From Candidatus Binatia bacterium (lineage in GTDB: Bacteria > Desulfobacterota > Binatia > Bin18), in the NCBI GenBank assembly GCA_963666315.2, contig CAXXHG010000015.1, forward strand, positions 1-64,000: a stretch of DNA of 64,000 nucleotides. Direction: 5' to 3'. Positions 50,939-51,252 of this stretch are shown in pieces (the first letter of the stretch is position 1; the number at the start of each line of letters is the position of its first letter). The notes beneath the pieces are model-generated. The model saw nothing but the letters and a program-made list of their open reading frames with translations, was not told where the DNA came from and did not search any database. Made by a program: the position numbers and the translations under genes.

Positions 50939-51252
50939 TCGGTCGGGTGGACACAACCCTGAGCGTTTCGGCTCCTGTAATGTCACAGGACCGAGCGGAC
51001 CGAGCCTCGGGCCGCTAACGGCGATCGGTTCCTGGCTGAGCGGATTCTGGACCCGCGGTGGGTACGCCGAGAAAGGAGGTGATCTAGTGGCGATATCAAA
51101 TATGGTGATTTGTGAGGTGGTGGCCTCCTAGGCCGACGTACCCAAAATACAGGGTGGTCGCTTGGGAGGACCAGGCACCGCCGAAACCCCGACAGCCCGT
51201 GCTCATCATACACGGGACGTCCGCATAAGGACGTAGCACTGTCGGGGTTTTC
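50939..51252 (+). ncRNA. Unrecognised large structured RNA with an internal SD and 14-codon ORF
   Basis: About ten mutually compatible helices read by eye, including a four-way and a three-way junction; upstream promoter candidate and terminal U-run. Confidence 0.75.
51087..51131 (+). CDS. Short ORF MAISNMVICEVVAS inside the structured RNA
   Basis: GTG start right after AGAAAGGAGGTGATC; TAG stop. Confidence 0.4.
   Translation: MAISNMVICEVVAS

Follow-up and report, generated by a model that had tools for sequence, protein, structure and literature searches.

A conserved RNA gene between two genes of the opposite strand

In the window, by which we mean the whole 64,000-nt stretch of Candidatus Binatia DNA analysed here, a small RNA gene lies on the + strand between holA and a gene for an Arg/Gly-rich protein. 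Both flanking genes are on the - strand, as the initial annotation had it, and holA, downstream, converges on the RNA gene. The features of the locus are listed below, each with the evidence that marks it.

50899..50927, +, promoter-like element (TGGACC 50899-50904, 17-nt spacer, TAATAT 50922-50927); position conserved in relatives
50935..51256, +, whole small RNA gene, ~320 nt; block boundaries, folding z-score, double changes, G-U/A-C ratio, single copy
50939..51003, +, 5' Y-shaped domain with closing stem 50939-44/50998-51003, hairpin 50945-59 (ACACA loop) and long hairpin 50964-97; pairing and double changes
51011..51022, +, small 4-bp hairpin; 99.2% paired, double change in one pair
51023..51033, +, anti-Shine-Dalgarno (anti-SD) mimic GAUCGGUUCCU; 8 of 11 letters match the 16S 3' end, could pair with the SD
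51040..51056, +, hairpin GCGG/CCGC with conserved CUGG in the loop; 87.5% paired, one double change
51070..51084, +, extended Shine-Dalgarno (SD) sequence AGAAAGGAGGUGAUC; 15-nt complement to the 16S 3' end
51087..51131, +, small ORF of 14 codons plus stop, GUG start, UAG stop, predicted peptide MAISNMVICEVVAS; frame conservation
51112..51120, +, SD-like box GUGAGGUGG, ending exactly 8 nt 5' of the stop; invariance in class loci
51116..51179, +, long irregular hairpin; pairing of four sections, five pairs with double changes
51184..51251, +, three-way-junction intrinsic terminator with U run; pairing and double changes

The Arg/Gly-rich neighbour has no match in Pfam, NCBIfam or the Atlas; among its 75 homologs one is labelled 'hypothetical protein' and the others are nameless. 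Its predicted model has a mean pLDDT of 66.6, and Foldseek had no match at E <= 0.001; its best matches, weak ones to ribosomal proteins S6 and S10, reflect a generic ferredoxin-like fold.

That a discrete structured element occupies this interval had been proposed from the letters alone, and this is borne out by the edges, the folding energy and the covariation of the element. By BLAST, a conserved block of about 50936-51251 was matched in 23 of 24 same-genus genomes, in one copy and at 76-90% identity. The 3' edge of the alignable block falls at window positions 51249-51251 in 21 of the 24 loci compared (L003-L026), and its 5' edge at 50936-50937 in 11 loci of the same set. Across the class, the core of the small RNA is present in 131 of 251 genomes by BLAST, a count that takes in one unpublished genome (G195), and an exact motif finds one copy each in 136 of the 251, with no match for the reversed pattern and none in G195. 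The folding check that had been suggested gave a + strand energy of -150.5 kcal/mol and a z-score of -5.46, equalled by none of 100 shuffles.

The - strand also folds better than its shuffles (z -4.09), and the block does sit between two - strand genes, so that one might read it as the terminator or 3' UTR of holA, which the 12-bp stem at its 3' end could terminate, or as the 5' leader of the Arg/Gly-rich gene. We consider this very improbable. In a strand test on relatives, G-U pairs outnumber A-C pairs by 324 to 65, and the RNA is therefore encoded on the + strand; the SD, the ORF, the U run, the promoter and the Rfam match described below all lie on that strand too. Moreover, the element is found in unrelated gene contexts elsewhere, and several same-genus genomes have other ORFs between it and holA. 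The earlier reading of a stand-alone + strand gene, not a cis leader, is thus upheld, since the downstream gene converges and the synteny varies between lineages, in which the downstream neighbours differ or converge.

The promoter-like element just upstream, which had also been pointed out before, keeps its position in an alignment of 24 same-genus or same-order sequences (T[GA]GACC and TAnnnT), and would place the transcription start at about 50934-50936. A consensus promoter scanner made no call at 50899-50927, where the site scores 8 of 12 against a threshold of 9, and a terminator scanner made none at the three-way junction; in both cases the rules of the scanner omit such sites. Two contigs assembled from RNA libraries overlap the gene, one from X16 (417 nt, 18 differences, covering 50952-51346) and one from X19 (250 nt, 7 differences, covering 50986-51223), and X17 holds the ORF core alone (51104-51134) of a relative; such contigs carry neither strand nor end information and may stem from DNA carry-over, and the flanking genes are likewise covered by contigs in the RNA libraries X15, X17 and X19, so that neither the contigs nor the gaps in their coverage are given any weight here.

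Helices maintained in relatives

Double (compensatory) changes were found in 36 of the 89 pairs of the structure, a number reached by none of 500 shuffles, and 90.9% of cells pair, versus 37-50% when the partners are slid. About half of the helices first proposed are not maintained in relatives, and the 5' end in particular had to be redrawn. The initial annotation described a four-way cloverleaf closed on the first GACCGA copy (50989-94), but this closure pairs in 70.7% of cells, with one column pairing in only 4 of 32 sequences, and its GAGC/GCTC hairpin pairs in 41.4% of cells in the same 32 sequences. What stands of the cloverleaf are the GGGT/ACCC hairpin (50945-59; 88.3% of cells, double changes in 4/4 pairs) and the CTGT/ACAG hairpin (96.1%, also 4/4). 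Across the family, the domain is closed on the second GACCGA copy, at 50998-51003 (96.8% paired, double changes in three of six pairs), and is therefore a Y-shaped three-way junction, whose long hairpin, 50964-97, is paired in 86.1% of cells with double changes in 9 of 11 pairs. A separate hairpin once drawn at 50995-51015 clashes with this closure.

Downstream of the Y-domain, the loop of the small hairpin at 51011-51022 reads CUAA, where most of the genus has GUAA, and the hairpin at 51040-51056 has counterparts in class relatives with other stems (GCAGG/CCUGC and GCAAGC/GCUUGC). An 8-bp stem proposed between 51059-66 and 51137-44 pairs in 62.0% of cells (32 sequences) and is not conserved. 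In the long irregular hairpin, four sections are paired in 96.4%, 92.5%, 88.5% and 89.6% of cells. The 5' strand of this hairpin consists of the last five codons of the ORF, the stop and 12 nt further, its 3' strand has the C-rich CCAGGCACC at its end, and its tip is lengthened by insertions in two relatives (L023 and L025).

The terminal three-way junction ending in U's was correctly recognised at the outset. Its 12-bp stem (81.7% of cells paired, four double changes), the CCCGTG hairpin (92.7%, three double changes) and the ACGTCC hairpin (87.5%, double changes in 6/6 pairs) all covary, and UUUU(U) follows the stem across the genus. RNAalifold, run on 32 sequences, also returned long-range pairs (8-12/220-224 and 74-83/201-211); these were rejected because the local P1 stem shows three compensated pairs.

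A short reading frame with an extended Shine-Dalgarno sequence

The initial annotation called the gene a non-coding RNA, yet conservation is highest in a short ORF, which has a start codon at optimal spacing from the SD and ends in a fixed stop. In the 16S gene of the same genome, the 15 letters that immediately precede the spacer are exactly the reverse complement of the extended SD. All relatives keep the core of this SD, GGAGGUGRUC, with little or no change. Frame 0, tested as a start 4-14 nt past GGAGG and open to the conserved stop, is kept in 57/57 and 105/105 distinct sequences, versus none and none for frame 1 and one and three for frame 2 under the same test. The start codon varies in its first base (A, G or U), UG being constant, and the stop is TAG in 54 and TAA in three of 57 sequences, with no TGA although TGA was allowed. 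Length changes within the ORF come in multiples of 3, and others are taken up between the SD and the start codon, the gap from SD to box being 24, 25, 26, 27, 30, 33, 36 or 39 nt across relatives. In a set of pattern hits that is mostly actinobacterial, the 88 distinct ORFs of the commonest length are all 39 nt long.

The start codon is followed by 11-18 codons of nearly free sequence. Of 50 class loci retrieved by BLAST, 47 have the box GUGAGGUGG unchanged and two others the variant GUAAGGUGG; the locus L195 also has the box, but its variant SD was missed by the pattern. With the stop codon in the A site, the box would lie some 5 nt 5' of the codon in the P site, and the terminator stem begins 53 nt past the stop. 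The conserved codons of the ORF have invariant third positions, those of the box included, which suggests a constraint at the RNA level, and in codons 2-5 all three positions are equally variable. The peptide sequence itself is not conserved.

One explanation of this pattern is a purely non-coding regulatory RNA whose ORF is never translated and whose SD-like and anti-SD-like runs are helix strands or seeds for the ribosome-binding sites of mRNAs, much as the seeds of the C-rich 6C RNA pair with such sites. The RNA-level conservation with its invariant third positions, the unconserved peptide, the position of box and stop inside a conserved hairpin and the C-rich 3' strand conserved in all forms would fit this. 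It would leave the NUG degeneracy of the start unexplained, however, and it sits poorly with a start that is in frame with the fixed stop in 162/162 distinct sequences versus 0-3 in other frames, with length changes that come in threes inside the frame and not ahead of it, and with 15 nt of complementarity to the 16S tail at the canonical spacing from a start. We regard it as unlikely, and consider that the mini-ORF is probably translated, judging from the conservation of the frame together with published footprints on homologs (see below).

Translation might serve to make a functional micropeptide of 12-18 residues, with the structure merely controlling the stability or translation of its mRNA; the conserved frame, the strong SD, the gene's own promoter and terminator and the semi-conserved C-terminal residues (C/S/R-E-V-V/A-A/G-S/R) are as expected of such a gene. 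But the conserved residues are those dictated by the RNA box, the variable codons show no excess of third-position changes, and codon 5 of the actinobacterial ORFs is a conserved NGG that reads as R, W or G. Length and chemistry also diverge, from the hydrophobic MAISNMVICEVVAS here to the polar MQSSDGSCSKRPGEVAET in Acidobacteriota, and no modification or export genes are conserved nearby. A micropeptide gene thus seems improbable to us, and we incline to the view that the act of translation counts for more than its product.

A long relative of Ms_IGR-5

Searched against Rfam, the window has no family at its gathering score at the small RNA, and the tmRNA elsewhere is the sole passing match. 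The earlier suggestion of an undescribed class is not supported: 51064-51257, the 3' two-thirds of the small RNA, aligns to the whole Ms_IGR-5 model (RF02471, positions 1-184 of 184) at 35.2 bits, under the gathering score of 45. The E value is 2.6e-6 in a search of 701 nt and 4.4e-6 when all 5 Mb of the genome are searched, where nothing else matches. The matches to CC2171 (12.9 bits, E 2.9) and Proteo-phage-1 are at chance level. Another long-form locus, L032, scores 34.7 bits against RF02471, and L005, L027, L043, L065, L071, L107 and L131 have no match to this model at E <= 0.01. Conversely, the pattern drawn from the window recovers bona fide Ms_IGR-5 loci, two of which, taken as controls (L097 and L075), score 175.5 and 93.3 bits.

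Ms_IGR-5 is likewise a single-copy, stand-alone gene with an extended SD, a short ORF, the box GUGAGGUGG (which is also in the RF02471 consensus), a stop 8 nt on, a stop-containing hairpin, a C-rich strand and a terminator, and its family consensus reads ..UGU GAG GUG GCU GCC CGC UAG in the same frame. The long hairpin at 51116-51179 is the counterpart of hairpin 2 in the model. Unlike Ms_IGR-5, the gene described here is found in a host that is not an actinobacterium, its terminator is a three-way junction, and about 130-135 nt of extra conserved sequence (the Y-domain, small hairpins and anti-SD mimic) precede the SD, whereas short forms begin about 10 nt ahead of it; the Y-domain is missing from both the actinobacterial and the acidobacterial short forms. 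The named long-form relatives are labelled Thermodesulfobacteriota and Rokubacteria, and a pattern search found the core layout, beyond Actinomycetota, in Acidobacteriota, Rokubacteria, Thermodesulfobacteriota and Myxococcota. We hold it very probable that the RNA gene is genuine, lies on the + strand and is related to Ms_IGR-5; it is a long relative of a little-studied actinobacterial RNA and no wholly new class.

Ms_IGR-5 was reportedly first described by Li et al. in 2013, and its Rfam entry presents it as an sRNA of Actinobacteria listed without an assigned function. Homologs are reported to be RNA-seq-validated transcripts in Streptomyces (PMC8079986, PMC8780764), and in both M. abscessus and M. 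smegmatis the ribosome-protected reads on them are reported as significant (PMC4974804). In that study the footprints are described beside others on plainly non-coding RNAs, and are therefore no proof of translation. In the literature searched, we found neither Ms_IGR-5 described as bearing an ORF, although supplementary tables (those of the Ribo-seq study PMC4974804, or mycobacterial small-ORF lists) may already list it, nor its wide range of phyla, its short and long architectures or a ribosome-loading core with a free peptide.

Competing pairings and a model of ribosome engagement

At least three mutually exclusive pairings are available in the central domain among invariant G-rich and C-rich strands. 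The minimum-free-energy fold, the centroid fold and the two RNAalifold runs all pair the anti-SD mimic with 51074-84, within the SD, and this helix is paired in 96.3% of cells with zero double changes, as the SD is invariant. The long-range stem 51026-35/51171-80 of the initial annotation is nearly invariant (89.6% paired, one double change) and competes with two equally compatible helices. In an energy shuffle test on 76 class-level sequences, at most 2 of 50 shuffles reached the observed value in 15 sequences for the mimic and SD, in 10 for the mimic and the 3' strand and in six for the box and the 3' strand, against the high background of a composition rich in G and C; because this composition raises the background, shuffling settles none of the candidate central helices. 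For the box and 3' strand, a matched versus mismatched test gave a weak difference (4.17 versus 3.68 extra pairs). Given these exclusive pairings, the switch set out here is a model.

We suggest that selection keeps a ribosome-loading cassette rather than a peptide, made up of a 16S-pairing SD, a GUG, AUG or UUG start at optimal spacing and the box GUGAGGUGG set before UAG, rarely UAA. In the free RNA, the SD would be masked by the upstream anti-SD mimic (51023-33) and the end of the ORF locked in the long hairpin against the C-rich 3' strand (51157-79). A 30S subunit could invade from an unpaired AGAAA toehold, which matches the 16S tail, and the translating or terminating ribosome would then melt the long hairpin and release the C-rich strand; by this melting, the conformation of the RNA, and any action in trans, would report ribosome engagement. 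In the short forms the promoter lies immediately 5' of the SD in 92 of 113 cases, which leaves no space for the mimic, and the masking step would therefore apply to the long form only. This particular sequence of masking and unmasking is tentative, and we think it somewhat doubtful in its specifics. Taken as a whole, the reading of the gene as a ribosome-engaging, long-form sRNA of the Ms_IGR-5 family, with its own promoter and terminator and gated by its own translation, is one that we favour slightly, and the conserved parts are consistent with the action on ribosomes that had been guessed from the sequence.

A more speculative version, which we would put forward as a long shot, is that of an mRNA mimic capturing ribosomes at both ends of a 14-codon track, the peptide being irrelevant. 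Here the 15-nt SD would outcompete the internal copy of the 16S tail only when the 3' tail of the ribosome is intact and free, the start would be weak (GUG or UUG), and the second, SD-like box would re-pair with the 16S tail exactly as an RF1-type stop enters the A site. The family might in this way act as a sensor or sponge, sensing or soaking up free mature 30S/70S particles or sensing RF1 activity.

Comparison with other small RNAs

The dual-function sRNAs SgrS/SgrT, RNAIII/hld and SR1/SR1P share with this gene a small structured transcript with a very short ORF. A further likeness is to rnTrpL/peTrpL of Sinorhizobium (PMC6614838), an attenuator-derived small, structured, terminator-ended transcript with a very short ORF and possible action as an RNA. 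We know of no counterpart in these RNAs to a 15-nt SD combined with an SD-like box whose distance from a UAG or UAA stop is fixed. Compared with these dual-function and attenuator-derived sRNAs, however, the peptide here is not conserved and there is no downstream operon to attenuate; nor is the layout that of a leader-peptide attenuator, as holA converges on the gene and the downstream neighbours in other lineages differ or converge.

Like tmRNA, the gene specifies a multi-domain structured RNA in the range of 300-400 nt with a short internal frame that ribosomes would enter, but tmRNA has a tRNA-like acceptor domain and neither an SD nor a start codon, both of which are present here. In agreement with the initial annotation, the true tmRNA of the genome lies at 37589-37945 (-), the sole RF00023 match, the small RNA itself giving none. 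6S RNA and Ms1 are RNA mimics that sequester RNA polymerase. The likeness to them is conceptual only, that of a stand-alone RNA imitating what a core machine naturally acts on (in this case an mRNA start site, perhaps the 16S tail), whereas in sequence and structure there is no relation and the sequestration of ribosomes is hypothetical.

Conclusions

The Ms_IGR-5 family extends well past Actinomycetota and has two architectures, short and long, around an invariant core that takes the form of a ribosome-loading mini-ORF with a freely varying peptide. Even on a plain reading it makes a clean annotation case, as pipelines miss both the RNA, because it falls below the Rfam cut-off, and the ORF, because it has 14 codons. 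An anonymous sRNA thereby becomes a testable hypothesis, in which the selected property would be the engagement of ribosomes at initiation and at an RF1-type stop. Were the family indeed a sensor or sponge, it would add a new type of global translational regulator, one that would be to translation, in five phyla or more, what 6S RNA and Ms1 are to RNA polymerase.

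A conserved RNA gene between holA and an Arg/Gly-rich gene

The small RNA is encoded on the + strand, in a gap of 466 nt between two genes on the - strand.

Genes at and around the small RNA locus
37589-37945, - strand: canonical tmRNA gene (RF00023, 167.9 bits, full model)
48353-49594 and 52420-54278, - strand: neighbouring genes for a family III CoA-transferase, a CCG-domain protein and a 2Fe-2S/4Fe-4S protein
49764-50804, - strand: Arg/Gly-rich open reading frame (ORF), 346 amino acids, no Pfam family
50935-51256 (approximate), + strand: small RNA, ~320 nt
51271-52299, - strand: holA (Pfam DNA_pol3_delta and its C-terminal domain)

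In a BLAST-type search with 391 nt in and around the element as query, 33 of 41 related genomes matched, including 23 of the 24 from the same genus at 76-90% identity, each with a single copy. The alignable block stops at 51249-51251 on the 3' side in 21 of 24 loci and at 50936-50937 on the 5' side in 11 of them, the rest extending back into the promoter-like region; these boundaries agree with the extent proposed in the initial annotation, which is right. In the genus alignment the element's flanks vary freely, and an upstream T[GA]GACC, 17-nt spacer and TAnnnT are constant, as is a downstream U run. Further out in the class only the core is retained (~51061-51142, ~80% identity); BLAST detects it in 131 of 251 class genomes (counting the unpublished G195); the core motif pattern occurs once each in 136 of the 251, and its reverse in none. 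The element is a real, well-conserved RNA gene.

The Arg/Gly-rich ORF is divergent from the small RNA, with ~130 nt between their starts. Among 40 loci from the window's family and order, it adjoins the element in this orientation in 34, and holA flanks the element in 27. It has no match in Pfam, NCBIfam or Atlas, and none of its 75 homologs carries an informative name. In the protein model a beta-alpha-beta-beta-alpha-beta N-domain (residues 3-100) is predicted with confidence, the RG-rich linker (~111-254) is disordered and the C-domain is small; fold matches are weak only, with ribosomal proteins S6 and S10 on top (E of at least 1.6e-3). The protein might be a candidate RNA-binding partner. 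The CoA-transferase, CCG-domain and 2Fe-2S/4Fe-4S neighbours appear to be routine metabolism genes and show no obvious connection with the small RNA.

Relationship to Ms_IGR-5

At Rfam gathering thresholds the tmRNA is the sole match in the whole window; the initial annotation had likewise seen no hallmarks of tmRNA, RNase P, SRP, 6S or a recognised riboswitch in the element. With permissive filters, all 184 positions of RF02471 (Ms_IGR-5, 'Actinobacteria sRNA') align to 51064-51257 at 35.2 bits (E = 2.6e-6 regionally; genome-wide E = 4.4e-6, with no other match). The score is significant yet lies below the gathering score of 45, so under the curators' rule the element counts as a relative and not as a member. 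The full-model match contradicts the earlier assignment to an undescribed class: the element, whose 5' 130 nt fall outside the model, represents a new long form within a family that is known but uncharacterised. Streptomyces homologs are listed as expressed small RNAs in PMC8079986 (Table 2) and PMC8780764, and no main text in the searchable literature gives Ms_IGR-5 a function or an ORF.

Structure and strand

The + strand (50939-51256) folds at -150.5 kcal/mol, against -122.0 +/- 5.2 in 100 dinucleotide shuffles, none as good (z = -5.46); the - strand also beats its shuffles (z = -4.09). An alignment of 32 sequences, drawn from genus, family, order and class and from two Rokubacteria, served to compare two explicit structures. 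A family-consensus structure pairs 90.9% of cells (sequence-by-pair entries), a share that falls to 37-50% if the partners are shifted by 1-3 columns, and 36 of its 89 pairs have changed on both sides with pairing kept, a number reached in 0 of 500 shuffles. Consensus pairs contain 324 G-U versus 65 A-C combinations, and the RNA is therefore on the + strand.

The structure initially proposed pairs 80.4% of cells and is about half right. Its GGGT/ACCC and CTGT/ACAG hairpins (88.3% and 96.1%) and its terminal three-way junction (stems at 81.7%, 92.7% and 87.5%, with 13 doubly changed pairs) hold up; the GAGC/GCTC hairpin (41.4%), the 8-bp stem (62.0%) and the cloverleaf closure on the first GACCGA copy (70.7%, one column pairing in only 4 of 32 sequences) do not. 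The tandem pair of GACCGAG copies (50989-95 and 50998-51004, +) is confined to this genome and made that closure possible; relatives hold the second copy alone. Closure by the second copy is paired in 96.8% of cells with 3 compensated pairs, so the 5' domain is a Y-shaped three-way junction (50939-51003). The proposed long-range stem pairs well (89.6%), but its strands overlap those of competing helices, which join 51023-33 to the Shine-Dalgarno (SD) sequence (96.3%) and the ORF end to a 3' strand (96.4% and 92.5%). The central domain is ambiguous, as these helices share nearly invariant G-rich and C-rich strands that covariation cannot separate.

A mini-ORF with a conserved frame

The conserved core (51070-51131) reads AGAAAGGAGGUGAUC, 2 nt, GUG, 13 more codons and UAG. 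The first 15 letters of AGAAAGGAGGUGAUC are exactly complementary to the sequence with which the genome's own 16S gene ends, ...GGATCACCTCCTTTCT. In distant relatives the sequence past the start codon is strongly diverged, yet lengths differ by +3 and +6. Scanning one genome per species for an SD followed by the SD-like box GUGAGGUGG, N8 and UAG returned at least 116 stretches. Two of them score 175.5 and 93.3 bits with the RF02471 model, which shows that true Ms_IGR-5 is among what the pattern recovers. Among the matches listed, most are from Actinomycetota.

Other pattern hits among the matches listed (locus labels)
Acidobacteriota: L043, L047, L065, L072, L125, L132, L133
Rokubacteria: L107, L131
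Thermodesulfobacteriota: L032
Myxococcota: L071, L145

We then asked which frames have a start codon 4-14 nt past GGAGG and stay open up to the conserved stop position. With start and stop unforced, all 57 of 57 distinct BLAST-found relatives keep frame 0 open, none keeps frame 1 and one keeps frame 2; pattern hits among the matches listed gave 105 of 105, none and three. Distances from SD to box are 24, 25, 26, 27, 30, 33, 36 and 39 nt, and every step other than a multiple of 3 lies between SD and start. Of the stops in the unforced set, 54 are TAG, 3 TAA and 0 TGA. Three fetched loci outside the regular expression have intact ORFs, two with GUAAGGUGG (Glu to Lys) and one with a variant SD.

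This conserved initiation site and frame make the label 'ncRNA' doubtful, and point to a newly recognised, probably ribosome-loading mini-ORF in a Ms_IGR-5-related family whose distribution, going by these matches, covers several phyla. Within the window's phylum, 5 of 301 sampled genomes carry the motif, all from the window's own class (10 genomes in the sample), and 0 of the 291 from other classes do; the exact pattern occurs in 6 of 121 genomes of a thin sample from the phylum of the locus L097 (including the unpublished G565). A metatranscriptome contig of another organism (run X17) also carries the ORF core, matching at 51104-51134 with SD and GUG start in its non-matching flank; relatives of the small RNA thus occur in marine-sediment RNA libraries.

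Encoded peptides
Window element: MAISNMVICEVVAS
Actinobacteria: L/M-x-S-x-R-T-R-E-V-A-A-R
Acidobacteriota: MQSSDGSCSKRPGEVAET

In the variable codons 2-5, entropy is alike at codon positions 1/2/3 (for example 1.43/1.84/1.42 and 1.62/1.63/1.52), third positions are invariant in the conserved part, and the actinobacterial form has NGG as its codon 5 (Arg, Trp or Gly). The even entropies, invariant third positions and diverse peptides indicate that frame and RNA motifs are selected, and residues are not.

Short and long forms

Synteny around the element is not shared between lineages: in mycobacteria a class-IV aminotransferase-like gene, the element and a nitrobindin-like gene follow in order (identities judged from translations), and in Rhodococcus and Nocardia ABC-exporter genes precede it. 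The M. smegmatis IGR-5 position is given as ncMSMEG15794c in PMC10454040. Because genes 3' of the element are often convergent on it, it is not a cis leader, as originally argued.

Of 113 distinct short-form upstream regions among the matches listed, 92 have TTGNNN-N16-19-TANNNT-N3-10-CAC immediately 5' of the SD, versus 0 of 113 in a control stretch, which places the RNA start ~10 nt 5' of the SD. The long form extends further 5' of the SD: its Y-domain is followed by a GNRA-like hairpin, then by a mimic of the 16S tail, then by one more hairpin. The loop of the long form's first hairpin (50945-50959, +) has a conserved ACAC(A/G), and the letters ACAC also stand at the presumed short-form 5' end, just 5' of the SD (L097, L043 and other loci). 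In f4, a family of the window's class, 11 of 19 genomes hold an Acidobacteria-like subtype (for example G027:C17:16446-16502), a short form whose ORF ends ..CEVAET as in Acidobacteriota, which points either to ancient paralogous subtypes or to transfer from one phylum to another.

A possible mechanism

Ribosomes would load onto the small RNA; ribosome-protected reads on Ms_IGR-5 homologs fit such loading, in an account (PMC4974804) where clearly non-coding RNAs are footprinted as well. Minimum-free-energy and centroid folds of the long form pair the SD with 51023-33 and leave AGAAA, the match to the very 16S end, unpaired, where it could offer a toehold to an incoming 30S subunit. The SD-like box is fixed 8 nt 5' of the UAG or UAA stop. 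With the stop in the A site, the end of the box would lie 5 nt ahead of the P-site codon, as an SD lies relative to a start codon in initiation complexes, and renewed pairing of the 16S tail with the box could thus hold the ribosome at termination. A ribosome at the stop would occupy all of the long hairpin's 5' strand and so set the conserved C-rich strand free. From this toehold and this release, as predicted from the sequence, we read the small RNA as a probable riboregulator gated by its own translation.
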